Under the pieces are notes generated by a model that searched no databases, was not told the origin of the DNA, and saw only the letters and a list, made by a program, of their open reading frames with translations. Positions 3,283 through 37,714 of a stretch of 64,000 bases of DNA are shown here, in pieces (within the stretch, counting starts at the first letter, position 1; each line of letters opens with the position of its first letter). The stretch is from assembly GCF_045037415.1 (NCBI RefSeq), contig NZ_CP173438.1; one strand, written 5' to 3'. A program made the translations under genes and the position numbers. This DNA is from Escherichia coli (GTDB lineage Bacteria; Pseudomonadota; Gammaproteobacteria; Enterobacterales; Enterobacteriaceae).

Positions 3283-3288
3283 CTGCGG

Positions 3289-4320
3289 TTAGTCGCTGGT
3301 TGCATGATGACTTGCCTCCAGCGACGGAGTTGACACTGAATGGCGACGTACCAGCGTCGGACTAAAGACATTAGTGATTTCCGGGAGAGGGCGATTATCC
3401 GCCAGCGCCAAAGCCAGTTCGGCAGCCTGCGTCGCCATCGTCACGATTGGGTAACGCACGGTGGTCAGGCGCGGACGCACATAGCGTGACACCAGCACAT
3501 CATCAAAGCCAATTAACGAAATCTCACCCGGTACATCAATACCATTATCATTGAGCACGCCCATCGCGCCCGCCGCCATTGAATCGTTATAACAGGCTAC
3601 CGCAGTGAAATTTCTGCCTCGTCCCAAAAGCTCGGTCATTGCCTGTTCGCCGCCGCTTTCGTCTGGTTCGCCAAATGTCACCAGCCGGTCATTGGCCGGA
3701 ATACCACTTTCAGCAAGGGCATCGTAATACCCTTGCAGACGATCTTCGGCGTCAGAAATAGAGTGGTTAGAGCACAGATAACCAATGCGGGTATGACCTT
3801 GCTGAATTAAATGACGCGTTGCCAGCCAGGCACCGTAACGATCGTCCAGAGCAATACAACGGTTTTCAAAGCCAGGCAGGATACGGTTGATCAGCACCAT
3901 ACCGGGCATTTGTTTCATTAATGAGGCTAAATCGGCATCCGGGATCATTTTGGCATGGACAACCAGCGCAGCACAGCGATGGCGGATCAGTTGCTCAATG
4001 GCCTGACGCTCTTTTTGTTCGTTGTGGTAACCGTTGCCAATCAATAAAAAATTACCAGTGTGATAAGCCACCTGTTCGACCGCTTTCACCATTGCACCGA
4101 AAAACGGATCGGAAACATCACCAACGACCAGACCGATCGTTTCAGTGGTCTGCTGCGCCAGCGCACGGGCGTTGGCGTTCGGGTGATAGCTAAGAGACTC
4201 CATTGCACTATGCACAGCCAGTCGGGAAGCTTCGCTGGCTTTGGGTGAATTATTAATGACGCGGGAAACGGTGGCGACTGAAACGCCTGCCAGTCGGGCT
4301 ACATCCTTTATGGTCGCCAT
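3289..4320 (-). CDS. galR: Galactose operon repressor GalR (LacI family)
   Basis: 343-aa ORF starting MATIKDVARLAGVSVATVSRVIN (LacI-type HTH). Confidence 0.9.
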   Translation of the reverse strand: MATIKDVARLAGVSVATVSRVINNSPKASEASRLAVHSAMESLSYHPNANARALAQQTTETIGLVVGDVSDPFFGAMVKAVEQVAYHTGNFLLIGNGYHNEQKERQAIEQLIRHRCAALVVHAKMIPDADLASLMKQMPGMVLINRILPGFENRCIALDDRYGAWLATRHLIQQGHTRIGYLCSNHSISDAEDRLQGYYDALAESGIPANDRLVTFGEPDESGGEQAMTELLGRGRNFTAVACYNDSMAAGAMGVLNDNGIDVPGEISLIGFDDVLVSRYVRPRLTTVRYPIVTMATQAAELALALADNRPLPEITNVFSPTLVRRHSVSTPSLEASHHATSD

Positions 4321-4884: not shown

Positions 4885-8251
<3,367 letters not shown>

Positions 8252-16743: not shown

Positions 16744-17214
16744 ATGAAAAAACAACGTGGTTATACGCTGATTGAAACGCTGGTCGCGATGCTGATTCTG
16801 GTCATGCTAAGCGCAAGTGGGCTCTATGGCTGGCAATACTGGCAGCAGTCGCAACGGCTTTGGCAAACCGCCAGCCAGGCGCGGGACTATTTGCTCTATT
16901 TACGTGAAGATGCCAACTGGCATAACCGCGACCACAGTATCAGTCTTATCAGGGAGGGGACGTTATGGTGCCTTGTGAGTTCCGTTGCTGGGGCGAATAC
17001 CTGTCATGGCAGTTCACCATTGGTCTTTGTGCCGCGCTGGCCCGAAGTCGAAATGAGCGACCTGACACCTTCGCTTGCTTTCTTTGGCCTGCGCAATACC
17101 GCATGGGCCGGGCATATTCGCTTCAAAAACTCAACGGGCGAGTGGTGGCTAGTGGTTTCGCCGTGGGGAAGACTCCGGCTTTGTCAGCAAGGAGAAACAG
17201 AAGGATGCCTGTAA
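16744..17214 (+). CDS. ppdA: Prepilin-type N-terminal cleavage/methylation protein PpdA
   Basis: 156-aa ORF with the type IV pilin-like N-terminus [14 protein letters not shown]. Confidence 0.85.
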
Positions 17215-17768
17215 AAGAGCAAGGTTTTTCTCTGCTGGAAGTGTTGATTGCTATGGCGATCAGTAGCGTATTGTTGCTGGGGGCTGCACGCTTTCTGCCT
17301 GCGTTACAGCGTGAAAGTTTAACGAACACCCGTAAGCTGGCGCTGGAAGATGAAATCTGGCTGCGGGTATTTACCGTCGCGAAGCATCTCCAGAGGGCGG
17401 GTTATTGCCATGGCAGCTGTACGGGCGAAGGGCTGGAAATTGTCGGACAGGGTGACTGTGTCATTGTGCAGTGGGATGCGAACAGTAATGGTATCTGGGA
17501 TCGCGAACCGGTAAAAGAGTCCGACCAGATTGGATTTCGTCTGAAGGAGCATGTGCTGGAAACGCTACGCGGTGCGACATCCTGTGAAGGTAAGGGCTGG
17601 GATAAAGTCACTAATCCGGATGCCATCATTATCGACACTTTTCAGGTCGTACGTCAGGATGTCAGCGGCTTCTCGCCGGTGTTGACGGTTAATATGCACG
17701 CTGCCAGCAAGGCTGATCCGCAAACCGTGGTGGATGCCAGCTATAGCGTGACAGGATCCAACCTGTGA
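17205..17768 (+). CDS. ppdB: Prepilin-type protein PpdB
   Basis: Start chosen at [20 protein letters not shown] (prepilin motif) after GGAG; the ORF-track extension upstream overlaps ppdA. Confidence 0.8.
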
Positions 17769-18172
17769 ACCGCGAAAAGGGTGTTTCGTCACTGGCTCTG
17801 GTCCTGATGCTGCTGATTTTGGGTAGCTTGCTATTGCAAGGAATGAGTCAGCAGGATCGCAGTTTTGCTTCTCGCGTGAGCATGGAAAGTCAGTCATTGC
17901 GCCGCCAGGCCATCGTTCAGTCGGCGCTGGAGTGGGGAAAAATGCACTCCTGGCAGACGCTGCCCGCAGTTCAGTGCTTACTGTATGCTGCCACCGGTGC
18001 CCGGGTTTGTCTGCGTTTACTGGCAGATAATGAAGCCTTATTGATTGCTGGTTATGAAGGCGTTTCGTTGTGGCGAACAGGCGAAGTCATCGATGGAAAC
18101 ATTGTTTTTTCGCCACGCGGCTGGAGCGATTTTTGTCCGCTGAAAGAGAGGGCGTTATGTCAGCTTCCCTGA
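17765..18172 (+). CDS. ygdB: YgdB, prepilin-operon protein
   Basis: 135-aa ORF with hydrophobic N-terminus, between ppdB and ppdC. Confidence 0.75.
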
Positions 18173-18480
18173 GGAATCAACAAGGCTTTAGTCTGCCGGA
18201 GGTAATGTTGGCGATGGTGTTGATGGTGATGATTGTCACTGCGTTATCGGGTTTCCAGCGAACATTAATGAACAGTCTTGCCAGCAGAAACCAGTACCAA
18301 CAGCTCTGGCGGCATGGCTGGCAGCAAACGCAACTGCGCGCGATTTCGCCACCTGCTAACTGGCAGGTCAACCGAATGCAGACATCGCAGGCGGGATGTG
18401 TCAGCATCAGCGTTACGCTAGTTTCACCCGGGGGCAGAGAAGGCGAGATGACCCGCCTGCATTGCCCGAATCGTCAGTAG
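18157..18480 (+). CDS. ppdC: Prepilin-type protein PpdC
   Basis: Start chosen at [21 protein letters not shown] (prepilin motif); the ORF-track start at 18070 is probably too long. Confidence 0.75.
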
Positions 18481-18492
18481 TCAGGAGCCGCT

Positions 18493-21400
18493 ATGTTAAG
18501 GGTCTACCATTCCAATCGTCTGGACGTGCTGGAAGCGTTGATGGAGTTTATTGTCGAACGCGAACGGCTGGACGATCCTTTCGAACCAGAGATGATTCTG
18601 GTGCAAAGTACCGGTATGGCACAGTGGCTGCAAATGACCCTGTCGCAAAAGTTTGGTATTGCGGCAAACATTGATTTTCCGCTGCCAGCGAGCTTTATCT
18701 GGGATATGTTCGTCCGGGTGTTACCGGAGATCCCCAAAGAGAGCGCCTTTAACAAACAGAGCATGAGCTGGAAACTGATGACACTGCTGCCGCAACTGTT
18801 GGAGCGCGAAGACTTTACCCTGTTGCGGCATTATCTGACTGACGATAGTGACAAGCGAAAACTGTTCCAGCTTTCTTCAAAAGCGGCGGACCTGTTTGAC
18901 CAGTATCTGGTCTATCGTCCGGACTGGCTGGCACAGTGGGAAACAGGACATCTGGTAGAAGGGTTGGGAGAAGCACAGGCCTGGCAAGCGCCGTTGTGGA
19001 AGGCGTTGGTGGAATATACCGACGAACTTGGGCAACCGCGCTGGCACCGCGCCAATCTCTATCAGCGCTTTATCGAAACGCTGGAGTCCGCGACGACCTG
19101 CCCGCCGGGGTTACCTTCGCGCGTCTTTATATGCGGTATTTCCGCGTTACCGCCTGTTTATCTCCAGGCGCTACAGGCGCTGGGTAAACATATTGAAATC
19201 CATCTCCTGTTTACCAACCCCTGCCGTTATTACTGGGGCGACATTAAAGATCCCGCTTATCTGGCGAAACTACTGACTCGCCAGCGCCGACACAGTTTTG
19301 AAGATCGCGAATTACCGCTATTTCGCGACAGCGAAAATGCCGGGCAGCTCTTTAACAGCGATGGTGAACAGGATGTCGGCAACCCGCTGCTGGCTTCATG
19401 GGGCAAGCTTGGGCGCGACTACATTTATCTCCTTTCTGACCTGGAGAGCAGCCAGGAGCTGGACGCTTTTGTCGATGTGACGCCAGATAACCTGCTGCAT
19501 AATATTCAGTCTGACATTCTGGAACTGGAAAACCGCGCCGTTGCTGGTGTGAACATCGAAGAGTTTTCCCGTAGCGATAACAAACGCCCGCTTGATCCAC
19601 TGGATAGCAGTATCACCTTCCACGTTTGCCATAGCCCGCAGCGTGAAGTTGAAGTTTTACACGATCGCCTGCTGGCGATGCTGGAGGAAGACCCGACACT
19701 TACTCCGCGCGACATCATCGTGATGGTGGCTGATATCGACAGCTACAGTCCGTTTATTCAGGCTGTGTTTGGTAGCGCACCTGCGGATCGTTACCTGCCT
19801 TACGCCATTTCCGACCGTCGGGCGCGGCAGTCGCATCCTGTACTTGAAGCGTTTATCAGCCTGTTATCGTTGCCAGACAGCCGCTTTGTGTCGGAAGACG
19901 TGCTGGCATTACTGGATGTGCCGGTGCTGGCGGCGCGGTTTGACATCACCGAAGAAGGGCTGCGTTATTTACGCCAGTGGGTCAACGAGTCCGGCATTCG
20001 TTGGGGGATAGATGACGACAACGTTCGCGAGCTGGAACTTCCCGCTACCGGTCAACACACCTGGCGGTTTGGCCTGACGCGCATGTTGCTGGGCTACGCG
20101 ATGGAGAGCGCGCAGGGCGAGTGGCAATCGGTTCTACCTTATGATGAATCGAGCGGCTTAATTGCAGAACTGGTGGGGCATCTGGCTTCACTGCTAATGC
20201 AGCTAAATATCTGGCGTCGCGGGCTGGCGCAGGAGCGTCCGCTGGAAGAGTGGTTGCCGGTTTGTCGCGATATGCTCAACGCCTTCTTCCTGCCGGATGC
20301 GGAAACCGAAGCGGCGATGACGCTGATCGAACAACAATGGCAGGCGATTATCGCCGAAGGTTTAGGTGCGCAGTATGGCGACGCGGTGCCGCTGTCACTA
20401 TTGCGTGATGAACTGGCACAGCGCCTGGATCAAGAACGTATCAGCCAGCGTTTTCTCGCCGGACCGGTTAACATTTGTACTCTGATGCCAATGCGTTCAA
20501 TTCCGTTCAAAGTGGTTTGCCTGCTGGGAATGAACGACGGCGTTTATCCACGTCAGCTTGCGCCATTGGGCTTTGATCTGATGAGCCAGAAACCGAAGCG
20601 TGGCGACCGTAGCCGTCGCGATGACGACCGCTATCTGTTCCTGGAAGCGTTAATTTCCGCGCAGCAAAAACTCTATATCAGCTATATCGGGCGTTCCATT
20701 CAGGATAACAGTGAACGTTTCCCGTCGGTACTGGTGCAGGAACTGATCGACTACATCGGGCAAAGCCATTATCTACCGGGCGATGAAGCGCTCAACTGTG
20801 ATGAAAGCGAGGCAAGGGTAAAAGCGCATCTTACTTGCCTCCATACCCGAATGCCGTTTGATCCACAAAACTACCAGCCAGGCGAACGACAAAGTTATGC
20901 TCGTGAATGGCTACCTGCGGCCAGCCAGGCTGGTAAAGCACATTCTGAATTTGTTCAGCCGCTGCCATTTACCTTACCGGAAACCGTGCCGCTGGAAACG
21001 CTACAACGATTCTGGGCACATCCGGTGCGGGCATTTTTCCAGATGCGTTTGCAGGTGAACTTCCGTACCGAAGACAGCGAAATCCCCGACACCGAGCCAT
21101 TTATTCTGGAAGGACTTAGCCGTTATCAAATCAATCAGCAGTTATTGAATGCACTGGTTGAGCAGGATGATGCCGAACGCTTGTTCCGTCGCTTCCGGGC
21201 GGCAGGGGATTTACCGTATGGCGCTTTTGGTGAAATTTTCTGGGAAACGCAGTGTCAGGAGATGCAGCAGCTTGCCGACAGAGTCATTGCCTGTCGCCAG
21301 CCGGGGCAGAGTATGGAGATTGATCTCGCCTGCAACGGTGTGCAAATAACGGGCTGGTTGCCGCAGGTGCAGCCGGATGGCCTGTTGCGCTGGCGTCCCT

Positions 21401-21861
21401 CTTTATTAAGTGTGGCGCAGGGAATGCAACTTTGGCTGGAACACCTTGTCTACTGTGCCAGCGGTGGTAATGGTGAAAGTCGCCTTTTTCTACGCAAAGA
21501 CGGCGAGTGGCGTTTTCCGCCGCTTGCAGCCGAACAGGCTTTGCATTACCTCTCACAACTGATTGAGGGGTATCGTGAAGGAATGTCCGCGCCATTGCTG
21601 GTGTTACCTGAAAGTGGCGGCGCGTGGCTAAAAACCTGTTATGACGCGCAAAACGATGCCATGCTGGATGACGATTCCACGTTGCAAAAAGCCCGTACGA
21701 AATTCCTTCAGGCTTACGAAGGCAACATGATGGTGCGTGGCGAAGGTGATGATATCTGGTATCAACGGCTCTGGCGGCAATTAACACCAGAGACAATGGA
21801 GGCTATCGTTGAACAGTCGCAACGTTTCCTGTTACCGCTGTTTCGCTTTAATCAGTCATGA
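18493..21861 (+). CDS. recC: Exodeoxyribonuclease V gamma subunit RecC
   Basis: 1122-aa ORF starting MLRVYHSNRLDVLEAL. Confidence 0.95.
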   Translation: MLRVYHSNRLDVLEALMEFIVERERLDDPFEPEMILVQSTGMAQWLQMTLSQKFGIAANIDFPLPASFIWDMFVRVLPEIPKESAFNKQSMSWKLMTLLPQLLEREDFTLLRHYLTDDSDKRKLFQLSSKAADLFDQYLVYRPDWLAQWETGHLVEGLGEAQAWQAPLWKALVEYTDELGQPRWHRANLYQRFIETLESATTCPPGLPSRVFICGISALPPVYLQALQALGKHIEIHLLFTNPCRYYWGDIKDPAYLAKLLTRQRRHSFEDRELPLFRDSENAGQLFNSDGEQDVGNPLLASWGKLGRDYIYLLSDLESSQELDAFVDVTPDNLLHNIQSDILELENRAVAGVNIEEFSRSDNKRPLDPLDSSITFHVCHSPQREVEVLHDRLLAMLEEDPTLTPRDIIVMVADIDSYSPFIQAVFGSAPADRYLPYAISDRRARQSHPVLEAFISLLSLPDSRFVSEDVLALLDVPVLAARFDITEEGLRYLRQWVNESGIRWGIDDDNVRELELPATGQHTWRFGLTRMLLGYAMESAQGEWQSVLPYDESSGLIAELVGHLASLLMQLNIWRRGLAQERPLEEWLPVCRDMLNAFFLPDAETEAAMTLIEQQWQAIIAEGLGAQYGDAVPLSLLRDELAQRLDQERISQRFLAGPVNICTLMPMRSIPFKVVCLLGMNDGVYPRQLAPLGFDLMSQKPKRGDRSRRDDDRYLFLEALISAQQKLYISYIGRSIQDNSERFPSVLVQELIDYIGQSHYLPGDEALNCDESEARVKAHLTCLHTRMPFDPQNYQPGERQSYAREWLPAASQAGKAHSEFVQPLPFTLPETVPLETLQRFWAHPVRAFFQMRLQVNFRTEDSEIPDTEPFILEGLSRYQINQQLLNALVEQDDAERLFRRFRAAGDLPYGAFGEIFWETQCQEMQQLADRVIACRQPGQSMEIDLACNGVQITGWLPQVQPDGLLRWRPSLLSVAQGMQLWLEHLVYCASGGNGESRLFLRKDGEWRFPPLAAEQALHYLSQLIEGYREGMSAPLLVLPESGGAWLKTCYDAQNDAMLDDDSTLQKARTKFLQAYEGNMMVRGEGDDIWYQRLWRQLTPETMEAIVEQSQRFLLPLFRFNQS

Positions 21862-22036
21862 GTGTTGTATAAAAATTGCGCAATCTATCCGCTTACTTTA
21901 TGATGCGCACCAGTCACGGACTGATGGTTATATAGACATAGGCTGACTCGTTCAGCACAAGATTAAATTCTGGCAGATGATTTGCGTTAACGTGTTGAAT
22001 CTGGCCAGAAAATAAAGTTGATTATGAGGTCCGTGA

Positions 22037-24925
22037 ATGCCCCGCAGCATCTGGTTCAAAGCATTATTGTTGTTTGTTGCCCTCTGGGCACCCTTAAGTC
22101 AGGCAGAAACGGGATGGCAGCCGATTCAGGAAACCATCCGTAAAAGTGATAAAGATAACCGCCAGTATCAGGCTATACGTCTGGATAACGGTATGGTGGT
22201 CTTACTGGTTTCTGATCCGCAGGCAGTTAAATCGCTCTCGGCGCTGGTGGTGCCCGTTGGGTCGCTGGAAGATCCTGAGGCGTACCAGGGGCTGGCACAT
22301 TACCTTGAACATATGAGTCTGATGGGGTCGAAAAAGTATCCGCAGGCTGACAGTCTGGCCGAATATCTCAAAATGCACGGCGGCAGTCACAATGCCAGCA
22401 CGGCACCGTATCGCACGGCTTTCTATCTGGAAGTTGAGAACGATGCCTTACCCGGTGCGGTAGACCGCCTGGCCGATGCTATTGCAGAACCCTTGCTCGA
22501 CAAGAAATACGCCGAACGTGAGCGTAATGCAGTGAATGCCGAATTAACCATGGCGCGTACGCGTGACGGGATGCGCATGGCACAGGTCAGCGCAGAAACC
22601 ATTAACCCGGCACACCCCGGTTCAAAGTTTTCTGGTGGTAACCTCGAAACTTTAAGCGACAAACCAGGTAATCCGGTACAGCAGGCGCTGAAAGATTTCC
22701 ACGAGAAGTACTATTCCGCCAATCTGATGAAGGCGGTTATTTACAGCAATAAACCGTTGCCGGAGTTGGCGAAAATGGCGGCGGACACCTTTGGTCGCGT
22801 GCCGAACAAAGAGAGCAAAAAACCGGAAATCACCGTGCCGGTAGTCACCGACGCGCAAAAGGGCATTATCATTCATTACGTCCCGGCGCTGCCGCGTAAA
22901 GTTCTGCGCGTTGAGTTTCGCATCGATAACAATTCAGCGAAGTTCCGTAGTAAAACGGATGAATTGATTACCTATCTGATTGGTAATCGCAGCCCTGGTA
23001 CACTTTCTGACTGGCTGCAAAAGCAGGGATTAGTTGAGGGCATTAGCGCCAATTCCGATCCTATCGTCAACGGCAACAGCGGCGTATTAGCGATCTCTGC
23101 GTCTTTAACCGATAAAGGTCTGGCGAATCGCGATCAGGTTGTGGCGGCCATTTTTAGCTACCTCAATCTGTTACGTGAAAAAGGGATCGATAAACAATAC
23201 TTCGATGAACTGGCGAATGTGCTGGATATCGACTTCCGTTATCCGTCAATCACCCGTGATATGGATTACGTCGAATGGCTGGCAGATACCATGATTCGCG
23301 TTCCTGTTGAGCATACACTGGATGCAGTCAATATTGCCGATCGGTACGACGCTAAAGCGGTAAAAGAACGTCTGGCGATGATGACGCCACAGAATGCGCG
23401 TATCTGGTATATCAGCCCGAAAGAGCCGCACAACAAAACGGCTTACTTTGTCGATGCGCCGTATCAGGTCGATAAAATTAGCGCACAAACTTTCGCTGAC
23501 TGGCAGAAAAAAGCCGCCAATATTGCGCTCTCCTTACCGGAGCTTAACCCCTATATTCCTGACGATTTCTCGCTGATTAAGTCAGAGAAGAAATACGACC
23601 ATCCAGAGTTGATTGTTGATGAGTCGAATCTGCGCGTGGTGTATGCGCCAAGCCGTTATTTTGCCAGCGAGCCCAAAGCTGATGTCAGCCTGATTTTGCG
23701 TAATCCGAAAGCCATGGACAGCGCCCGCAATCAGGTGATGTTTGCACTCAATGATTATCTCGCAGGGCTGGCGCTTGATCAGTTAAGCAACCAGGCGTCG
23801 GTTGGTGGCATAAGTTTTTCCACCAATGCTAACAACGGCCTTATGGTTAATGCTAATGGTTACACCCAGCGTCTGCCGCAGCTGTTCCAGGCTCTGCTGG
23901 AGGGCTACTTTAGCTATACCGCTACGGAAGATCAGCTTGAGCAGGCGAAGTCCTGGTATAACCAGATGATGGATTCCGCAGAAAAGGGCAAAGCGTTCGA
24001 GCAGGCGATTATGCCCGCGCAGATGCTCTCGCAAGTGCCGTACTTCTCGCGAGATGAACGGCGCAAAATTTTGCCCTCCATTACGTTGAAAGAGGTGCTG
24101 GCCTATCGCGACGCCTTAAAATCAGGGGCTAGACCAGAGTTTATGGTTATCGGCAACATGACTGAAGCCCAGGCAATAACGCTGGCACGCCATGTGCAAA
24201 AACAGTTGGGCGCTGATGGTTCAGAGTGGTGTCGTAACAAAGATGTCGTGGTCGATAAAAAACAATCCGTCATCTTTGAAAAAGCCGGTAACAGCACCGA
24301 CTCCGCACTGGCAGCGGTATTTGTACCGACTGGCTACGATGAATACACCAGCTCAGCGTATAGTTCTCTGTTGGGGCAGATCGTACAGCCGTGGTTCTAC
24401 AATCAGTTGCGTACCGAAGAACAGTTGGGCTATGCCGTGTTTGCGTTTCCAATGAGCGTGGGGCGTCAGTGGGGCATGGGCTTCCTTTTGCAAAGCAATG
24501 ATAAACAGCCTTCATTCTTGTGGGAGCGTTACAAGGCGTTTTTCCCAACCGCAGAGGCAAAATTGCGGGCGATGAAGCCAGAAGAGTTTGCGCAAATCCA
24601 GCAGGCGGTAATTACCCAGATGCTGCAGGCACCGCAAACGCTCGGCGAAGAAGCATCGAAGTTAAGTAAAGATTTCGATCGCGGCAATATGCGCTTCGAT
24701 TCGCGTGATAAAATCGTGGCCCAGATAAAACTGCTGACGCCGCAAAAAATTGCTGATTTCTTCCATCAGGCGGTGGTCGAGCCGCAAGGTATGGCTATTC
24801 TGTCGCAGATTTCCGGCAGCCAGAATGGGAAAGCCGAATATGTGCATCCTGAAGGCTGGAAAGTGTGGGAGAACGTCAGCGCGTTGCAGCAAACAATGCC
24901 CCTGATGAGTGAAAAGAATGAGTGA
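22037..24925 (+). CDS. ptrA: Protease III (pitrilysin), periplasmic zinc metalloprotease
   Basis: 962-aa ORF with signal peptide and inverted zinc motif HYLEHM. Confidence 0.95.
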   Translation: MPRSIWFKALLLFVALWAPLSQAETGWQPIQETIRKSDKDNRQYQAIRLDNGMVVLLVSDPQAVKSLSALVVPVGSLEDPEAYQGLAHYLEHMSLMGSKKYPQADSLAEYLKMHGGSHNASTAPYRTAFYLEVENDALPGAVDRLADAIAEPLLDKKYAERERNAVNAELTMARTRDGMRMAQVSAETINPAHPGSKFSGGNLETLSDKPGNPVQQALKDFHEKYYSANLMKAVIYSNKPLPELAKMAADTFGRVPNKESKKPEITVPVVTDAQKGIIIHYVPALPRKVLRVEFRIDNNSAKFRSKTDELITYLIGNRSPGTLSDWLQKQGLVEGISANSDPIVNGNSGVLAISASLTDKGLANRDQVVAAIFSYLNLLREKGIDKQYFDELANVLDIDFRYPSITRDMDYVEWLADTMIRVPVEHTLDAVNIADRYDAKAVKERLAMMTPQNARIWYISPKEPHNKTAYFVDAPYQVDKISAQTFADWQKKAANIALSLPELNPYIPDDFSLIKSEKKYDHPELIVDESNLRVVYAPSRYFASEPKADVSLILRNPKAMDSARNQVMFALNDYLAGLALDQLSNQASVGGISFSTNANNGLMVNANGYTQRLPQLFQALLEGYFSYTATEDQLEQAKSWYNQMMDSAEKGKAFEQAIMPAQMLSQVPYFSRDERRKILPSITLKEVLAYRDALKSGARPEFMVIGNMTEAQAITLARHVQKQLGADGSEWCRNKDVVVDKKQSVIFEKAGNSTDSALAAVFVPTGYDEYTSSAYSSLLGQIVQPWFYNQLRTEEQLGYAVFAFPMSVGRQWGMGFLLQSNDKQPSFLWERYKAFFPTAEAKLRAMKPEEFAQIQQAVITQMLQAPQTLGEEASKLSKDFDRGNMRFDSRDKIVAQIKLLTPQKIADFFHQAVVEPQGMAILSQISGSQNGKAEYVHPEGWKVWENVSALQQTMPLMSEKNE

Positions 24926-27900
24926 TGTCGCCGAGACACTAGATCCTTTGCGCTTGCCCTTACAGGGCGAGCGCCTGATTGAAGCCTCTGCCGGCACAGG
25001 CAAAACCTTTACGATTGCGGCGCTCTATTTGCGCCTGTTACTTGGACTAGGCGGTTCGGCCGCCTTTCCCCGCCCGCTGACCGTTGAAGAACTGCTGGTG
25101 GTGACCTTTACCGAGGCTGCCACGGCAGAATTGCGTGGTCGTATCCGTAGCAATATCCACGAGTTGCGCATCGCCTGTCTGCGTGAAACCACCGACAATC
25201 CACTGTACAAACGCCTGCTGGAAGAGATCGACGATAAAGCGCAAGCCGCGCAGTGGTTGTTGTTAGCCGAGCGGCAGATGGATGAAGCGGCAGTCTTTAC
25301 TATCCACGGCTTTTGCCAGCGCATGCTCAACCTGAATGCCTTTGAATCCGGCATGCTGTTTGAGCAGCAGCTGATTGAAGATGAGTCTCTGCTACGCTAC
25401 CAGGCCTGCGCCGATTTCTGGCGTCGCCACTGCTACCCGCTGCCGCGTGAAATTGCCCAGGTCGTCTTTGAAACCTGGAAAGGGCCGCAGGCGTTGCTGC
25501 GCGATATTAATCGTTATCTGCAAGGCGAAGCGCCAGTTATCAAAGCACCGCCCCCCGATGATGAAACGCTGGCTTCCCGCCACGCGCAAATTGTGGCGCG
25601 TATTGATGCCGTAAAACAGCAGTGGCGCGACGCAGTGGGTGAACTGGATGCGCTGATCGAATCTTCTGGTATTGATCGACGCAAGTTTAACCGTAGCAAT
25701 CAGGCTAAATGGATCGAGAAGATCAGCGCCTGGGCAGAAGAAGAGACCAATAGCTATCAGTTGCCGGAGTCGCTGGAAAAATTCTCTCAGCGTTTCTTAG
25801 AAGATCGCACGAAAGCCGGGGGGGAAACCCCGCGACATCCACTGTTTGAGGCGATCGATCAACTGCTTGCAGAACCATTGTCGATCCGCGATCTGGTGAT
25901 CACCCGCGCATTGGCTGAGATCCGCGAAACAGTAGCGCGTGAAAAACGCCGCCGTGGCGAATTGGGTTTTGATGACATGTTAAGTCGGCTCGATTCCGCG
26001 CTGCGTAGTGAAAGCGGCGAGGTATTGGCAGCGGCGATCCGTACGCGATTCCCGGTGGCAATGATCGATGAATTTCAGGATACCGACCCCCAGCAGTACC
26101 GAATTTTTCGCCGTATCTGGCACCATCAGCCGGAAACCGCATTGTTGCTGATTGGCGACCCGAAACAGGCCATATATGCATTCCGGGGTGCGGATATCTT
26201 CACTTATATGAAGGCGCGTAGCGAAGTTCATGCTCACTACACCTTAGATACCAACTGGCGTTCCGCACCGGGAATGGTGAACAGCGTTAACAAACTTTTC
26301 AGCCAGACTGATGACGCGTTCATGTTTCGTGAAATACCGTTTATTCCTGTGAAATCTGCCGGGAAAAATCAGGCGTTACGCTTTGTGTTTAAAGGTGAAA
26401 TGCAGCCTGCGATGAAAATGTGGCTGATGGAAGGCGAAAGCTGCGGCGTTGGCGACTATCAAAGTACCATGGCGCAGGTATGTGCTGCGCAAATCCGCGA
26501 CTGGCTACAAGCCGGACAGCGGGGCGAAGCGTTGCTGATGAACGGCGACGATGCGCGTCCGGTGCGTGCTTCGGACATCAGTGTGCTGGTGCGCAGCCGC
26601 CAGGAGGCCGCTCAGGTGCGCGATGCCTTAACGCTGCTGGAAATCCCTTCCGTTTACCTTTCGAACCGCGACAGTGTTTTTGAAACTCTGGAAGCACAGG
26701 AGATGCTTTGGCTGTTGCAGGCGGTGATGACGCCCGAACGTGAGAACACCCTGCGCAGTGCGCTGGCAACGTCAATGATGGGGCTGAATGCGCTGGATAT
26801 TGAAACGCTGAATAATGACGAACATGCGTGGGATGCGGTAGTCGAAGAGTTCGATGGTTATCGGCAAATCTGGCGCAAACGTGGCGTTATGCCGATGCTG
26901 CGGGCGCTGATGTCGGCGCGTAACATTGCAGAAAACTTGCTGGCAACGGCAGGCGGTGAGCGGCGTCTTACCGATATCTTGCATATCAGCGAACTGCTAC
27001 AAGAAGCCGGAACGCAGCTGGAAAGTGAACATGCGCTGGTACGCTGGTTATCGCAACATATCCTCGAGCCAGACAGTAATGCCTCCAGCCAACAAATGCG
27101 CCTCGAAAGTGATAAACATCTGGTGCAGATTGTCACGATACACAAATCAAAAGGGCTGGAATATCCGCTGGTCTGGTTGCCATTTATTACCAATTTCCGC
27201 GTCCAGGATCAGGCGTTTTATCACGATCGCCACTCGTTTGAGGCCGTTCTGGATCTTAATGCTGCGCCAGAAAGCGTCGACCTCGCGGAGGCCGAACGTC
27301 TGGCGGAAGATCTGCGTTTACTTTACGTGGCGCTGACGCGTTCGGTTTGGCATTGCAGTCTCGGCGTTGCACCGCTGGTGCGCCGTCGTGGCGATAAAAA
27401 AGGTGATACCGACGTCCACCAAAGTGCGCTCGGGCGTTTGCTGCAAAAAGGAGAACCGCAAGATGTGGCAGGGCTTCGTACCTGCATTGAAGCGTTGTGC
27501 GATGATGATATTGCCTGGCAAACGGCACAAATTGGTGATAACCAGCCCTGGCAGGTTAATGATGCATTAACTGCAGAACTGAATGCGAGGACGCTACAAC
27601 GATTGCCCGGCGATAACTGGCGTGTCACCAGCTACTCCGGTTTGCAGCAGCGTGGTCACGGTATCGCTCAGGATCTGATGCCACGGTTGGATGTTGATGC
27701 CGCAGGCGTGGTCAGCGTCGTTGAAGTACCGACGTTAACACCGCATCAGTTCCCGCGCGGTGCGTCACCGGGGACATTCTTGCACAGTTTGTTTGAAGAC
27801 CTCGATTTTACCCAGCCGGTTGACCCGAACTGGGTACAGGAAAAACTGGAGCTCGGTGGCTTTGAACCGCAGTGGGAACCGGTGTTGACTGAGTGGATCA

Positions 27901-28460
27901 CGGCTGTCCTCCTGGCACCTCTCAATGAAACGGGTATTAGCCTGAGTCAGCTTTCCGATCGCGATAAACAGGTGGAGATGGAGTTTTACCTGCCAATTAG
28001 CGAACCGCTCATCGCCAGCCAGCTTGATGCACTAATTCGCCAGTTTGACCCGCTATCTGCTGGCTGCCCGCCGCTGGAGTTCATGCAGGTACGTGGCATG
28101 TTAAAAGGCTTTATCGATCTGGTGTTCCGCCACGAAGGGCGTTATTACCTGCTCGACTATAAATCCAACTGGTTGGGTGAAGACAGTTCGGCTTACACCC
28201 AACAGGCTATGGCAGCGGCAATGCAGGCACACCGCTATGATCTGCAATATCAGCTTTATACCCTGGCGCTGCACCGTTATCTGCGCCATCGTATTGCTGA
28301 TTACGACTATGAGCGCCACTTTGGCGGCGTTATTTATCTGTTCCTGCGTGGCGTTGATAAAGAACATCCGCAACAAGGGATCTACGCGACCCGACCCAAC
28401 GCCGGGTTGATTGACCTGATGGATGAGATGTTTGCCGGTATGACCCTGGAGGAGGCGTAA
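24918..28460 (+). CDS. recB: Exodeoxyribonuclease V beta subunit RecB
   Basis: Starts [30 protein letters not shown] (Walker A); 8-nt overlap with the ptrA stop. Confidence 0.95.
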
Positions 28461-30286
28461 TGAAATTGCAAAAGCAATTACTGGAAGCTGTGGAGCACAA
28501 ACAGCTACGCCCGCTGGACGTGCAGTTTGCCCTGACCGTGGCGGGAGATGAACATCCTGCCGTCACCCTCGCGGCGGCACTATTAAGTCATGATGCCGGA
28601 GAGGGACACGTTTGTTTGCCGCTTTCACGACTGGAAAATAACGAGGCGTCGCATCCGCTGTTGGCGACCTGTGTCAGTGAAATCGGTGAGCTACAAAATT
28701 GGGAAGAATGCTTGCTGGCTTCACAAGCGGTCAGCCGGGGAGATGAACCAACGCCGATGATCCTCTGTGGCGATCGTCTTTATTTGAATCGCATGTGGTG
28801 TAACGAGCGCACAGTGGCACGTTTTTTCAACGAAGTGAATCATGCCATTGAGGTTGATGAAGCTCTACTGGCGCAAACCCTGGACAAACTTTTTCCAGTA
28901 AGCGATGAAATTAACTGGCAAAAAGTTGCGGCGGCAGTGGCGCTGACGCGGCGGATTTCGGTGATTTCCGGCGGTCCTGGCACCGGTAAAACGACCACCG
29001 TAGCGAAGTTGCTGGCAGCCTTAATTCAAATGGCCGACGGAGAACGCTGCCGTATCCGTCTGGCTGCACCAACGGGTAAAGCTGCCGCGCGCTTAACCGA
29101 ATCTCTCGGCAAGGCTTTGCGACAGTTACCGCTGACCGCTGAACAAAAGAAACGCATTCCGGAAGATGCCAGCACTTTGCACCGATTGCTGGGCGCGCAG
29201 CCGGGTAGCCAGCGTTTACGTCATCATGCCGGTAACCCGCTGCATCTTGATGTGCTGGTGGTAGATGAAGCGTCAATGATCGATCTTCCTATGATGTCGA
29301 GACTGATCGACGCCTTGCCCGATCATGCGCGAGTGATCTTTCTCGGCGATCGTGATCAACTGGCCTCGGTTGAGGCTGGGGCTGTGCTGGGCGATATCTG
29401 CGCTTATGCCAACGCGGGCTTTACCGCCGAGCGTGCCGGGCAGTTGAGCCGCCTGACGGGAAGCCACGTTCCAGCAGGAACTGGCACAGAAGCGGCATCT
29501 TTGCGCGACAGCCTCTGCCTGCTGCAAAAAAGCTATCGTTTCGGCAGCGATTCTGGCATTGGTCAGTTAGCTGCGGCGATTAACCGAGGTGATAAAACGG
29601 CAGTGAAAACCGTTTTTCAGCAGGATTTTACTGATATCGAAAAACGGCTTTTACAGAGTGGCGAAGATTATATTGCGATGCTTGAGGAAGTTCTTGCGGG
29701 TTACGGACGTTATCTGGATCTGCTGCAAGCGCGTGCCGAGCCGGATTTAATCATTCAGGCGTTCAATGAGTACCAGCTTTTGTGCGCCCTGCGGGAAGGA
29801 CCGTTTGGCGTGGCTGGATTGAATGAGCGAATTGAGCAATTTATGCAACAGAAGCGCAAAATTCATCGTCATCCGCACTCTCGTTGGTACGAAGGTCGAC
29901 CAGTGATGATTGCCCGTAATGACAGCGCGCTTGGGTTGTTTAATGGCGATATTGGTATTGCGCTGGATCGCGGGCAGGGGACGCGCGTCTGGTTTGCGAT
30001 GCCGGACGGCAATATTAAGTCTGTGCAACCGAGTCGCCTGCCAGAGCACGAAACGACGTGGGCGATGACGGTACATAAATCGCAGGGATCGGAGTTCGAC
30101 CATGCGGCGTTGATTTTACCGAGTCAACGCACGCCGGTAGTAACGCGAGAGCTGGTTTACACCGCGGTGACCCGCGCGCGTCGCCGTCTGTCGCTGTATG
30201 CCGATGAGCGCATTTTAAGTGCGGCAATTGCCACGCGCACCGAGCGGCGCAGTGGTCTGGCGGCGTTGTTTAGTTCACGGGGATAA
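28460..30286 (+). CDS. recD: Exodeoxyribonuclease V alpha subunit RecD
   Basis: 608-aa ORF with Walker [11 protein letters not shown]; start overlaps the recB stop (TAATG). Confidence 0.95.
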
Positions 30287-33351: not shown

Positions 33352-33386
33352 AATCATCTTGTAACTGTTAAATCAGGCAAGGCAAT
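33352..33386 (+). promoter_or_regulatory. RAT-like (ribonucleic antiterminator) element partly overlapping the leader terminator
   Basis: TCTTGTAACTGTTAAATCAGGCAAGGCAA resembles the RAT consensus as I recall it (..TTACTG.TAAAGCAGGCAAAACC); sits immediately 5' of and overlapping the terminator stem. Confidence 0.55.
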
Positions 33387-33430
33387 GTTTGAAGTAGTTA
33401 TTACTTCTGACGTGCCTTGCCTTTTTTTTT
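33374..33430 (+). terminator. Leader terminator upstream of the antiterminator/PTS operon
   Basis: Stem CAGGCAAGGCA...TGCCTTGCC followed by T9, ending about 12 nt before the GGAG RBS of the antiterminator. Confidence 0.7.
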
Positions 33431-33441
33431 GGAGCCATGGA

Positions 33442-34266
33442 ATGATCATCGAAAAAGTCATGAACAATAATTGTGTACAGGCATCGATGAATGGACAGGA
33501 GGTTATCATTTCTGGGCCTGGCGTCGGTTACAACAAAAAATATGGAATGTCGGTCCCTGAGCATCCGGCTAACCGGATTTTTTATGTCAGAAATGAACAA
33601 AAAAACAAACTCTATAAATTGATTGAACATGTAGATATTGAGTATGTGTTTGTTGCCGAAAAAATAGTGCAATATGCGGAGAAAAATCTCGAAAAAAATC
33701 TCAATCCATCGCTACTATTGATTCTTGCGGATCACATTTCGAATGCAATATCCCGAGTCGCTTCAGGTATACAAATTAATAATGTTTTCCTTGATGAAAT
33801 CAAAGCGTTGTACAAAGCAGAGTATGCGATAAGTCGCGATGCATTAACTATCATTAATGAGCAATTCAGCGTTCAACTTCCTGATGATGAGATTGGTTTT
33901 ATAGCATTGCATATTTTAAATAATTATGAAAATTCAGTTGATTATGAATCAGTACGAATTATTGAGTTGTCGCAAATAATCACGGGGCTTATTGAAGTTG
34001 TTTATAACAGAAAGGTGGACAGAAGTTCATTTAACTATTCCAGATTTATGATGCACCTTAAATATTTTTCAAGTCGCGTGTTATGCAATGAAGAAATAAA
34101 ACAGAAAGATATTGGTGATATCTATGAACAGTTTCTTGAAAAGGACATCCTGTTACAGCGCGCAATTCATGAAATTGAACGGTATCTGTATGCCACTTTT
34201 AAATATGAATTAATTTTAGAAGAAAAACTATATCTCTCTATTCGTACCAAAGTATTAATGGACTAA
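33442..34266 (+). CDS. BglG/LicT-family transcription antiterminator (CAT RNA-binding domain plus PRDs)
   Basis: Start MIIEKVMNNNCVQASMNGQEVIISGPGVGYNKK aligns with the BglG/LicT N-terminus (MKIAKVINNNVI...); the ORF-track start at 33385 lies inside the leader hairpin. Confidence 0.75.
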   Translation: MIIEKVMNNNCVQASMNGQEVIISGPGVGYNKKYGMSVPEHPANRIFYVRNEQKNKLYKLIEHVDIEYVFVAEKIVQYAEKNLEKNLNPSLLLILADHISNAISRVASGIQINNVFLDEIKALYKAEYAISRDALTIINEQFSVQLPDDEIGFIALHILNNYENSVDYESVRIIELSQIITGLIEVVYNRKVDRSSFNYSRFMMHLKYFSSRVLCNEEIKQKDIGDIYEQFLEKDILLQRAIHEIERYLYATFKYELILEEKLYLSIRTKVLMD

Positions 34267-34297
34267 TTATATATAACATTTATATGAGATAACCCAC

Positions 34298-35878
34298 ATG
34301 AAACAAAAGAAAGCCTGGAGTTTTTTTCAGAGCCTGGGGAAGGCATTTATGTATCCCATTGCTCTGCTAAGTGTATGTGGCATGATGCTAGGGCTGGGAA
34401 GTGGTTTAGCCAGTGATGATATGGCAAAGTTAATTCCATTTCTGGCTATCCCAATAATTAAAACCATACTTGATTTCATTGTTAGTCTTGGTTTGTTTGC
34501 CTTTGTTAATTTACCTGTATTGTTTGCGATAGCGATTCCCTTAGGATTATTAAAAGATAAAGAGGATAAAGCCTATGGTGCTTTTTCTGGCTTAATTGGT
34601 TTTATGGCGATGCATCTGGGAACGAACTTTTATCTTAAACAGCACGACTTATTGGTCGTTGCTGACCAAATGTCGACACATGGGCAAACCATCATTCTGG
34701 GGATCCAGTCCTACAATACCAGCGTGTTGGGGGGAATTGTTGCTGGGTTATTAGTCGCCAGCATGTATAAAAAGATCGTTAATTTACGCATTCCTGAATC
34801 GTTAGGTTTTTATAGCGGCCCACGTCTGGTGCCTATCATTACACTGATTGTGATGAGTGGATTTGGTCTGATCATTCCTTTTATCTGGCCGCCGTTTTTC
34901 AATCTTTTCATGCTCATTGGACACTGGATTTCAACTTCCGGTCCTGTTGGTTATTTCTTCTATGCAGTTGCCGAACGCGTGACGATTCCTTTTGGCTTAA
35001 ACCATCTGGTGACGTCAGTTTTCCGCTTTACGCCAATCGGCGGTTCGGCTGTGATTGGCGGCGAAGAATATTACGGCACCCTGAACATGTTTATGGCGTA
35101 CGTCAAAGAGAATGCGGTCATTCCGCTGGATTTGGCGGGGAAAATGGAGCAGGGCAAACTGATGATTCAGTATGGTCTGGCTGGTGCCGCGCTGGCGATG
35201 TATCGCACTGCTCATGCTCAAAACAGAAAGGCTATCAAAGCATTGCTTATTTCCGGGGTGCTTACGGTGATTATTGGCGGCGTCAGCGAACCGATTGAGT
35301 TTCTGTTCTTATTTGTCAGTCCACTGCTGTTTGTCTTCCATGCCTTTATGAATGGATTCGCTAACATGGTTCTGCCATATATGGGCGTGAAGATGGGATT
35401 TACTGGCGATCTGATTCAATTTATTAGCTTTGGCGTATTGCGTGGCACAAGAACAGGTTGGCCGATCGCGGTGTGTGTCGAAGTGGCCTATTTCTTCATT
35501 TATTACTTTGTGTTCCGTTGGACCATTCTTAAATTTAACCTGATGACCGTAGGCCGTGAAGAGTCCAGTCCTGTCACGCTGAACGCTCACGAAGATACGG
35601 CTATAGCGGATATCCCAACTCCTGATAAATCAGAGCTGCAAGCGGCGGAGCAGATGGTTAAGGCACTTGGTGGTAAAGAGAATATTAAGTCACTGGATAA
35701 TTGCGTAACTCGTTTACGTTTAACAATCGCAGATATGGGATTGATTGACGAAGTTGCAATAAAAATAGCTGGCGGGATTGCGGTTGTTAAACTTGATCAA
35801 AATACCCTACAAGTCATTATCGGCACTAAAGTCATCGCCCTGCGTCGGGATATGGATAACTATATGGGGATATACTGA
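34298..35878 (+). CDS. PTS glucose/glucoside-family EIICB permease
   Basis: 526-aa polytopic membrane protein with C-terminal EIIB domain and the phosphorylatable-Cys motif NCVTRLRL. Confidence 0.8.
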   Translation: MKQKKAWSFFQSLGKAFMYPIALLSVCGMMLGLGSGLASDDMAKLIPFLAIPIIKTILDFIVSLGLFAFVNLPVLFAIAIPLGLLKDKEDKAYGAFSGLIGFMAMHLGTNFYLKQHDLLVVADQMSTHGQTIILGIQSYNTSVLGGIVAGLLVASMYKKIVNLRIPESLGFYSGPRLVPIITLIVMSGFGLIIPFIWPPFFNLFMLIGHWISTSGPVGYFFYAVAERVTIPFGLNHLVTSVFRFTPIGGSAVIGGEEYYGTLNMFMAYVKENAVIPLDLAGKMEQGKLMIQYGLAGAALAMYRTAHAQNRKAIKALLISGVLTVIIGGVSEPIEFLFLFVSPLLFVFHAFMNGFANMVLPYMGVKMGFTGDLIQFISFGVLRGTRTGWPIAVCVEVAYFFIYYFVFRWTILKFNLMTVGREESSPVTLNAHEDTAIADIPTPDKSELQAAEQMVKALGGKENIKSLDNCVTRLRLTIADMGLIDEVAIKIAGGIAVVKLDQNTLQVIIGTKVIALRRDMDNYMGIY

Positions 35879-37053
35879 TGGATGTTTTTAATACTCCTGT
35901 TTCCCGCAAAGGAACATATTGTACCCAATGGGACTTTTGCGAGGACAGATTTGGTGTAAAAGATGTACTACCATTCTCTATTTCAGATATGGATCTTCCG
36001 ATACCAGACGCTATCACCAGAGCATTAAAAAAACGCCTGGAACACCCGATTTTAGGGTACAGTCGTTGGCAACATGGTGAATATCTGAATGCGATAGTAA
36101 ACTGGTATTATCAACAATATCAAACAGATATTAAACCTGAATGGATAACCTATAGCCCCAGTGTGATGTACTCTATTGCAAAAGCAATAGAGTTATTGAC
36201 ATCGCATGGTGATAATATTCTCGTTTTTACACCTGTCTATAATGCATTTTTTGATGTAATTAAACATAGCGAGCGAAATATTCTGACAGCCTCTTTGATT
36301 ATAAAAAATGAGGGGAGCTACGCTATCAACTGGCAAGATTTTGATCTTAAGATTAAAAGCGCAAAGATGGTGTTATTATGTAATCCTCATAACCCGACAG
36401 GAACAGTCTGGTCGGAAGAAGAACTGCATAAAATCGCTGCAAGCTGTACAAGGCATAATGTCTGGTTATGTTCAGATGAAATCCATAGTGATTTTGTTTT
36501 TAATCGTAGCTTTACATCCGCGCTTAAAATAAAAAAAGAAAAAGTAGTAGTATTTAACTCGATATCGAAAACATTTAATGTTCCTGCACTAACAGGATCG
36601 TATATGATTTCAACTGACGATAATTTTAATCATAAGTTCAGAACGATATCGAGGTATCGCGATTTTGTAAACTCCCCATCAGTACTGAATATAATTGCAA
36701 CTATTATTGGCTATAACGAATGTGAGGGATGGTTAAAGTCATTAAAGGCACATATTGCCTCTAACATTCAATTCACCCAGCAGTATCTGAATGAAAATAT
36801 TCCAGAATTGATCGTAAGGCCAGCTGATGGTTGCTATTTTTCCTGGATAGATTGTTCTGCTATTGGTTATCCTTTTGATGAATTCTACAGTCGATTAATT
36901 CATGAAGGCAAAGTGGGCATTATGGCGGGGCATGTCTATGGAACGGAGGGGGAGGGCTACCTTCGTCTGAACCTGGCCTGCAGTCGAGAAAAATTATATA
37001 TGGGGCTTACGCGTCTTGTGAGTGTAATTAAAAATATTAATCAGGGAGAATAA
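35878..37053 (+). CDS. PLP-dependent C-S lyase / aminotransferase class I (MalY/PatB-like)
   Basis: 391-aa ORF; class I aminotransferase-fold features; gene pair resembles malX-malY. Confidence 0.7.
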   Translation: MDVFNTPVSRKGTYCTQWDFCEDRFGVKDVLPFSISDMDLPIPDAITRALKKRLEHPILGYSRWQHGEYLNAIVNWYYQQYQTDIKPEWITYSPSVMYSIAKAIELLTSHGDNILVFTPVYNAFFDVIKHSERNILTASLIIKNEGSYAINWQDFDLKIKSAKMVLLCNPHNPTGTVWSEEELHKIAASCTRHNVWLCSDEIHSDFVFNRSFTSALKIKKEKVVVFNSISKTFNVPALTGSYMISTDDNFNHKFRTISRYRDFVNSPSVLNIIATIIGYNECEGWLKSLKAHIASNIQFTQQYLNENIPELIVRPADGCYFSWIDCSAIGYPFDEFYSRLIHEGKVGIMAGHVYGTEGEGYLRLNLACSREKLYMGLTRLVSVIKNINQGE

Positions 37054-37055
37054 AA

Positions 37056-37652
37056 ATGAATAACACGGATCTTATCCATCTCATTAAACATTTTATGCGT
37101 AACGAACATAAAGCAGTTGAAGAAGTTATTGATTCCCCTCTTTCGGAGGTCGCAAATTTAATTAAAGTATTACAATCTTGTCAGGGAAAAGTTGTTTTTA
37201 TTGGTGTTGGTAAGTCCGGTATTATTGCCAGGAAACTCGCCGCAACATTTGCCAGCACCGGAACTCCCTCGTTTTTTGTTCACGGTACGGAAGCTGTACA
37301 CGGCGACCTTGGAATGGTGGCGAAAGACGATGTTGTTATTCTTATTTCAAACAGTGGTGAGACGGCGGAAATCCTGGCGACACTGCCTAGTCTGAAAAAA
37401 ATGGGTAATTATTTGATCTCTTTTACCCGCAGTCACCACTCATCGCTTGCGATAAGTTGTGATTTATCTGTTGAAATCCCCGTCAAAAGTGAGGCGGATA
37501 ATTTAGGTTTAGCACCGTCATGCTCGTCGACTGTTGTTCTGGTTGTTGGTGATGCGGTGGCGCTTGCACTCTCTGAATTGAAAAAATTTACTCGTGCTGA
37601 TTTCGGCTTATATCATCCAGGAGGTGCACTCGGCATTAAAGCAAATTCATAA
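37056..37652 (+). CDS. SIS-domain phosphosugar isomerase/binding protein
   Basis: 198-aa ORF with VVFIGVGKSGIIARKLAATFASTG (SIS phosphosugar-binding motif). Confidence 0.7.
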   Translation: MNNTDLIHLIKHFMRNEHKAVEEVIDSPLSEVANLIKVLQSCQGKVVFIGVGKSGIIARKLAATFASTGTPSFFVHGTEAVHGDLGMVAKDDVVILISNSGETAEILATLPSLKKMGNYLISFTRSHHSSLAISCDLSVEIPVKSEADNLGLAPSCSSTVVLVVGDAVALALSELKKFTRADFGLYHPGGALGIKANS

Positions 37653-37714
37653 TTTCAAAATATAAATACAGTAACCGGTCACGCCATCTTTTGGGGTGGC
37701 GTTCTTTGAAGTGA

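Follow-up and report, generated by a model that had tools for sequence, protein, structure and literature searches.

Overlapping gene junctions in the ptrA-recB-recD and aas-lplT operons of an Escherichia coli chromosome and their plausible role in translational coupling

The window analyzed here, that is, the whole 64,000-nucleotide stretch of an Escherichia coli chromosome (contig NZ_CP173438.1), encompasses the ptrA-recB-recD and aas-lplT genes, in which the end of each upstream gene overlaps the beginning of the following one. The relevant features are as follows.

4906-7065, + strand, aas (RefSeq annotation)
7058-8251, + strand, lplT (RefSeq annotation)
7058-7065, + strand, aas/lplT overlap ATGAGTGA of 8 nt (spacing -8), with the lplT ATG at 7058-7060 and the aas TGA at 7063-7065
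21987-22022, + strand, 36-nt Hfq-binding region in the ptrA 5' UTR (located by pattern search; function as reported in PMC12342828)
22037-24925, + strand, ptrA (pitrilysin, or protease III), 962 aa, which opens the operon (RefSeq annotation of SK1144, identical in sequence; clean translation)
24898-24917, + strand, recB translation-initiation region inside ptrA, A/G-rich (GAGTGAAAAGA) and devoid of a 4-mer Shine-Dalgarno (SD) core
24918-24925, + strand, ptrA/recB overlap read from the sequence, with the recB ATG at 24918-24920 and the ptrA TGA at 24923-24925
24918-28460, + strand, recB coding sequence, 1180 aa (RefSeq annotation; the RecB chains in the PDB start at this Met)
28448-28455, + strand, recD SD GGAGGAGG in the last recB codons (..L E E A), identified by anti-SD energy and sequence reading
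28458-28462, + strand, recB/recD junction TAATG (spacing -1) read from the sequence, with the recB TAA at 28458-28460 and the recD ATG at 28460-28462
28460-30286, + strand, recD coding sequence, 608 aa (RefSeq annotation; clean translation)

The lengths of PtrA, RecB and RecD are the standard ones and their translations contain no internal stops. The genes lie between thyA and argA on a single strand in the order recC, ptrA, recB, recD (annotation of the identical sequence and open reading frames of the window), and annotated E. coli chromosomes match the region at 100% identity. The first-pass annotation regarded the overlaps as confirmation that the backbone operon structure is intact; the operon is indeed intact, with all open reading frames at full length, but this conclusion rests on the identity to reference genomes and not on the overlaps as such. 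The E. coli K-12 operon, located in the same thyA-argA region with recC in a separate upstream operon, has the same gene order and protein lengths, and in K-12 strains the 58-nt segments around the ptrA/recB and recB/recD junctions are 100% identical to those of this strain. Neither of these two junctions differs from K-12; the 36-nt Hfq site published for the region before ptrA and its counterpart here are distinguished by 2 mismatches, as determined by pattern search. The ptrA, recB and recD genes are reported to be co-transcribed from a promoter upstream of ptrA (PMC12342828). A consensus scan of the sequence yielded 5 promoter-like sites compared with 10.8 in shuffled sequences and an unremarkable 19 terminator-like sites compared with 16.5, none of either kind being located at a junction; although such a scan is weak evidence, it gives no support for a promoter or terminator within the operon at these points. 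In practical terms, the main use of the junctions is to verify that the window carries intact core chromosome here.

Direct reading of the sequence bears out all three overlaps that had been reported. The ptrA and recB genes have 8 nt in common, ATGAGTGA (spacing -8); recB and recD share the single base 28460 within TAATG (spacing -1); and the octamer at the aas/lplT junction is identical to that at the ptrA/recB junction. The starts and stops coincide with those annotated by RefSeq in strain SK1144, whose sequence matches positions 24000-29000 at 100% identity. The span 24900-28470 brackets the two rec junctions, and the aas/lplT junction lies outside it, at about 7060. The three overlaps (24918-24925, 28460 and 7058-7065) involve co-directional pairs and fall within the range of spacings, from -8 to approximately +10 nt, that is compatible with termination-reinitiation. 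Such overlaps are not statistically unusual at these junctions, given that 11 of the 28 same-strand neighboring gene pairs in the window overlap. These junctions are normal for the E. coli operons concerned, have long been known and belong to the commonest types of bacterial overlap; as the already known arrangement of a well-studied operon, they matter little as a discovery.

The overlaps would disappear if the annotated recB or recD start were wrong and the true start were located downstream, a possibility to which we assign next to no weight. Apart from the mechanical open reading frame call, which opens recB 9 nt upstream, at GTG 24909, and so introduces some ambiguity in principle, we detected nothing in its favor, and the use of this GTG would lengthen the overlap rather than abolish it. 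Against reassignment, the recB ATG occupies the homologous position in 80 of 80 Enterobacteriaceae species, and the recD start is ATG in 76 of 79 species and GTG in the remaining 3. Moreover, the N-terminal motif M-x-D/E-x-A-E-x-L-D-P of RecB is conserved from residue 1, no further Met precedes the Walker A motif, which begins at residue 23, the N-terminus agrees with the PDB chains over residues 1-80, and the active RecB in the solved structures starts with MSDVAETL. The alternative GTG start itself was rejected because an in-frame start upstream of the recB ATG exists in only 30 of the 80 species and the PDB chains begin at the ATG. The starts thus stay where they were annotated and have not been displaced downstream.

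With overlaps of 8, 1 and 8 nt between stop and start codons, the site at which ribosomes bind for the second gene of each pair falls within the coding sequence of the first, as already stated for recB and ptrA in a 2025 paper (PMC12342828). Inspection of the initiation regions agrees with this location for both recB and recD and reveals sites of opposite strength, the SD of recB being almost nil and that of recD strong. The best anti-SD duplex of recB has an energy of -2.5 kcal/mol, the second weakest among the 36 valid starts in the window; across species, the median is -3.0 and the 4-mer core is absent in 63 of 80. The recD SD, at -12.1 kcal/mol, is the strongest among the same 36 starts; all 79 species compared have its core, and in every one of these it exceeds the recB SD. 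An SD motif within the upstream gene, a frequent but not obligatory trait of such pairs, is accordingly found for recD but not for recB or lplT, the SD of the latter being weak as well (-3.5 kcal/mol).

The encoded C-terminal peptide of RecB is highly variable (64 different 8-mers), whereas in the last six recB codons GAG outnumbers GAA by 116 to 9 (93% GAG), compared with 3111 to 3871 (45% GAG) in the rest of recB, which corresponds to an odds ratio of 16. This codon usage indicates that the recD SD is under selection at the nucleotide level and is maintained by codon choice; codon-level selection is strong for the recD SD and none was detected for that of recB. A GAAGAAGC-type sequence would be the synonymous SD knock-out form of the recD GGAGGAGG.

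About 89-96% of the more than 5,400 complete E. coli genomes, K-12 among them, carry the junction sequences without change, the 58-nt segments being identical in 5218 of 5425 genomes for ptrA/recB, 4822 of 5424 for recB/recD and 4913 of 5421 for aas/lplT. In the cross-species comparison, which covered 80 Enterobacteriaceae species for ptrA-recB and 79 for recB-recD, the ptrA-recB overlap is present in 78 of 80 species, as the 4-nt ATGA in 46, the 8-nt ATGANTGA in 30 and a 20-nt form in 2. The recB-recD overlap is present in all 79 species, in a 4-nt form in 70 and a 1-nt form in 9. Thus, the form of the overlap changes between genera while the overlap itself stays. Nevertheless, conservation by itself is no proof that coupling is selected for, because an overlap is mutationally 'sticky': the loss of a stop codon only lengthens it, as is the case in L066 and L082, in which the change of TGA to AGA produced the 20-nt form. 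The two species that lack the ptrA-recB overlap have a 2-nt gap (L068) and a 413-nt spacer (L020). The recB SD in L020 and L068 has energies of -5.8 and -5.9; the possibility that a stronger SD compensates for the lost overlap was rejected given that 16 of the 80 loci, most of them overlapping, have an equal or stronger site.

Overlaps of -8, -4 and -1 nt represent the three enriched spacings in prokaryotes and have been linked to termination-reinitiation (PMC12548453, PMC10666635), and both ATGNNTGA (-8) and TAATG (-1) are exactly among the motifs listed for termination-reinitiation pairs (Huber et al. 2019, 2023; J Bacteriol 2025 review). The claim that the overlaps are consistent with translational coupling therefore holds: two of the coupling-linked spacings are present, and 78 of 80 species retain the ptrA-recB overlap and all 79 the recB-recD overlap. 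Translational coupling at these junctions is plausible on the sequence evidence. [quoted passage not shown] 1982, as cited in PMC12342828). In the literature that treats ptrA together with recB, we found no result on the effect of premature stops on recB or recD translation; a Mu insertion in ptrA is only supposed there to affect recB and recD.

Two models of coupling are generally accepted, and under one of these, RNA unfolding, a hairpin would hide the recB or recD start until the upstream ribosome melts it and a new 30S subunit binds. We regard this mechanism as quite improbable here. A small hairpin is able to pair part of the recD GGAGGAGG, but 60- and 100-nt segments spanning each of the three junctions fold with no greater stability than shuffled sequences (z from -1.21 to +1.31), and the start regions of recB and lplT are less structured than shuffles, with the start codons unpaired in the minimum-energy folds. 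Structure-mediated coupling was rejected accordingly. The recD SD is not sequestered in significant structure either (z = -1.2) and, being both strong and unburied, could support independent initiation.

The strength and accessibility of the recD SD speak for a reading in which the overlaps are real but functionally neutral, resulting from genome compaction and stop-codon drift, with free 30S subunits starting each gene on its own; in that case, recD would use its strong SD, and recB would be poorly translated simply from a poor site. We consider this reading unlikely, albeit deserving of serious attention. The high frequency of overlaps in the window, the drift of their form between genera, including the mere extension to 20 nt in L066 and L082, and the existence of two species that manage without the ptrA-recB overlap are all in line with neutrality. 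So is the bioBF pair, one of five overlapping E. coli pairs assayed by reporter, which is uncoupled despite its weak SD (Huber et al.). However, the other four of these five pairs are coupled, and coupling drops steeply with the distance between genes (Huber et al.; PMC10666635). Furthermore, recB lacks a usable SD in 63 of 80 species although it is an important gene. Finally, removal of the Hfq site before ptrA, approximately 2.9 kb upstream, alters the amount of RecB protein per mRNA, increasing its translational efficiency (PMC12342828), an effect that is explained more easily if translation of recB depends on that of ptrA.

These are the native junctions of the ptrA-recB-recD and aas-lplT operons, and the evidence taken together makes it probable that termination-reinitiation serves the translation of recB and recD. 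A ribosome that completes ptrA would terminate 5 nt beyond the recB AUG, and because the recB SD is practically absent, recB would probably be translated mainly through inefficient re-initiation by such ribosomes. Inefficient re-initiation would help to hold RecB at a few molecules per cell, and the weak SD fits a RecB translation rate measured at 0.15 per min, lower than the range usual for E. coli, as well as the count of 3.9 molecules per cell (PMC12342828). A ribosome that completes recB would terminate atop the recD AUG, just past the strong, conserved GGAGG, so that recD might be started efficiently by re-initiation and possibly by fresh initiation too. An efficient start of recD would suit the production of matched amounts of two subunits of one enzyme, in line with the enrichment of overlapping pairs for subunits of complexes (PMC12548453, Huber et al., PMC10666635). 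RecB and RecD belong to this class. [quoted passage not shown]

A more specific proposal, which we put forward tentatively and rate somewhat below an even chance, is that across the Enterobacteriaceae recB has essentially no ribosome-binding site of its own and is translated almost only by ribosomes finishing the unrelated ptrA. Under this proposal, the inserted ptrA gene would act as a translational throttle on RecBCD dosage and as the entry point of Hfq regulation, with recD retaining a selected strong SD that matches its output to RecB; a 2025 eLife paper hints at such an arrangement. The overlap of ptrA with an SD-less recB start may explain the very low translation of RecB. By the same route, regulation by Hfq at the ptrA 5' UTR would be passed on to RecB, and the overlap may thus also explain how binding of Hfq before ptrA reaches RecB.

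The segment 24000-29000 is identical (100%) to several complete E. coli chromosomes and is matched at ≥95% identity by 5425 of the 5426 complete E. coli genomes. Gene coordinates were obtained by converting the RefSeq annotation of strain SK1144, which is identical in sequence, to window positions; the window follows SK1144 until ~49,869, save for four substitutions and one indel. The genes considered here are the following:

18493-21861, recC
22037-24925, ptrA (pitrilysin, protease III)
24918-28460, recB
28460-30286, recD
4906-7065, aas
7058-8251, lplT

On translation, the coding sequences that meet at the junctions have textbook lengths and contain no internal stops. The locus is the canonical E. 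coli ptrA-recB-recD operon, and its junctions show no difference from those of K-12. A similar style of compactness is seen upstream of recC (16744-18493), in an overlap chain consisting of ppdA/ppdB (10 nt), ppdB/ygdB (4 nt) and ygdB/ppdC (16 nt), with a 12-nt gap between ppdC and recC.

The first-pass annotation had reported 8-nt overlaps at ptrA/recB and aas/lplT and a TAATG junction at recB/recD, and reading of the sequence bears out every detail. At ptrA/recB (...GAAAAGA-ATG-AGT-GAT-GTC), recB starts with the ATG at 24918 and ptrA ends with the TGA at 24923-24925, such that the 8 nt ATGAGTGA are common to both genes. At recB/recD (...CTGGAGGAGGCG-TAATG-AAA), the recB TAA (28458-28460) and the recD ATG (28460-28462) have one base in common. 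At aas/lplT, the start codon of lplT (ATG) lies at 7058 and the stop codon of aas (TGA) occupies 7063-7065, and the overlap (7058-7065) is the same octamer, ATGAGTGA, that is found at 24918-24925. This sharing is probably a coincidence within the ATGNNTGA class; RecB and LplT both open with Met-Ser-Asp/Glu. By far the commonest prokaryotic spacing is -4 nt (NTGA), followed by -1 (TAATG/TGATG) and -8 (ATGNNTGA) (2025 review, PMC12548453; Huber et al., PMC10666635). The three overlaps are real and not unusual, belonging to the enriched spacing classes; the -8 and -1 classes are textbook cases, and 11 of the 28 same-strand neighboring pairs in the window overlap.

The start codons on which this geometry depends appear secure. 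In a mechanical listing of ORFs, recB begins at GTG 24909; this candidate was rejected in favor of ATG 24918, which occupies a homologous position in 80/80 related species (only 30/80 have any in-frame start farther upstream), is followed by an N-terminus conserved from residue 1, and agrees with the RecB chains of solved RecBCD structures, which open MSDVAETL. The recD start is likewise at a homologous position in all 79 loci (ATG in 76 species, GTG in 3). Given these homologous positions across species, reassignment of either start further downstream, which would have undone the overlaps, finds no support.

Within E. coli, 58-nt windows centered on each junction were searched against complete genomes and found to be identical in 5218/5425 (ptrA/recB), 4822/5424 (recB/recD) and 4913/5421 (aas/lplT) genomes; at both rec junctions the identical genomes include K-12 strains. 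Sampling a single genome for each species gave 80 Enterobacteriaceae loci (RecB 68-98% identical). In all 80, ptrA precedes recB, with a 4-nt overlap (ATGA) in 46 loci, an 8-nt overlap in 30 (18 ATGAATGA, 12 ATGAGTGA), a 20-nt overlap in two (L066 and L082), a 2-nt gap in one (L068) and a 413-nt non-coding spacer in one (L020). recB and recD overlap in 79/79 loci: 70 have a 4-nt overlap, and the other 9 (those of Escherichia plus a few others) a 1-nt overlap. Overlap as such is retained although its precise form varies, a pattern that fits selection for close spacing. Because point mutation seldom removes an overlap, conservation by itself is no proof of selection. In L066 (Kosakonia pseudosacchari) and L082 (Enterobacter sp. 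Bisph1), the ptrA stop is changed from TGA to AGA and ptrA extends to the next stop (~3989-4008 in these loci), a natural case of an overlap lengthening rather than vanishing. Intestinirhabdus alba (L020, 3588-4000) is the sole species of the 80 with a long spacer, which is GC-rich. In Citrobacter amalonaticus AUH_CA_2023_1 (L078), the recB start and stop are out of frame (3547 nt), reflecting a frameshift or an assembly error, and in E. coli E69 (L075) the RecB match stops at residue 666, the edge of the stored locus.

The ribosome-binding site of each downstream gene lies within the upstream gene, and the sites differ greatly in strength. For the 36 valid starts in the window, the 20 nt preceding the annotated start codon were scored for pairing with the 16S rRNA 3' end. 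The best duplex is -2.5 kcal/mol for recB (second weakest of the 36), -3.5 kcal/mol for lplT (also weak) and -12.1 kcal/mol for recD, the strongest of all (GGAGGAGG, 28448-28455). Across species, the recB Shine-Dalgarno (SD) score has a median of -3.0, with no 4-mer SD core in 63/80 loci, as against a median of -9.5 for recD, with a core in 79/79 (mostly GGAGG starting at -12); the recD SD is the stronger of the two in 79/79. The last six recB codons encode Glu by GAG 116 times and by GAA 9 times across loci, compared to 3111 GAG and 3871 GAA in the rest of recB (odds ratio 16, Fisher p ~1e-29, uncorrected for shared ancestry), and the RecB C-terminal peptide is highly variable (64 different 8-mers among 78 loci). 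Codon choice here preserves the recD SD at the nucleotide level.

What is observed directly is only the geometry, namely intact, contiguous, overlapping genes with the downstream RBS inside the upstream one. A ribosome terminating ptrA would halt 5 nt beyond the recB AUG and, because recB has no usable SD, its translation most likely results from inefficient re-initiation by ribosomes that have just completed ptrA. The published RecB translation rate of 0.15 per min, under the usual E. coli range, the ~3.9 RecB molecules per cell, and the effect of Hfq, which decreases RecB protein per mRNA (deletion of the Hfq site in the ptrA 5' UTR increases it), all agree with this scenario (PMC12342828); that site is found at 21987-22022 with two mismatches. 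For recD, termination atop the AUG beside a strong, conserved SD should yield efficient (re)initiation, which would suit two proteins that, like RecB and RecD, belong to the same enzyme (RecBCD); in E. coli, subunits of complexes are 4.5-fold enriched among overlapping pairs (PMC10666635). Independent initiation of recD at its exposed SD is also possible. In reporter tests of overlapping E. coli pairs, 4 of 5 were coupled and bioBF was not (Huber et al.), so coupling cannot be assumed. The overlap geometry, the spacing classes and the identity to E. coli genomes support the earlier annotation as worded, that is, an intact operon with junctions consistent with translational coupling.

RNA folds of 60 and of 100 nt around each junction were not more stable than shuffles (z -1.21 to +1.31), with the start codons unpaired. 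Promoter-like sites were less frequent than in shuffled sequence, terminator-like sites were at shuffle level, and neither kind fell at any junction. That the recB RBS is located within ptrA, and that coupling may occur there, has already been published (PMC12342828). The contrast seen across species, between a recB start lacking an SD and a recD SD under codon selection, is mildly new and purely descriptive.

Elsewhere in the window, a five-gene block (33385-38671) between amiC and a type VI secretion cluster encodes a PRD-domain regulator, a PTS EIIC, a MalY/PatB-family protein, a KpsF/GutQ-family isomerase and a phosphoglycerate dehydrogenase, and has tight junctions of its own (a 1-nt overlap and a 2-nt gap). 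An insertion of ~2.58 kb (49870-52448), missing from SK1144, carries two minus-strand ORFs, one (513 aa) bearing the Pfam domains rve and Mu-transposase C-terminal, the other (249 aa) matching IstB_IS21 (E 2e-67), and has terminal inverted repeats (49870-49885 and 52435-52450) with ~7 bp duplicated at its ends. It is an IS21-family element, which interrupts the ImcF-related (TssM) gene belonging to that type VI secretion cluster, leaving ORFs 48102-49904 and 52398-54338.
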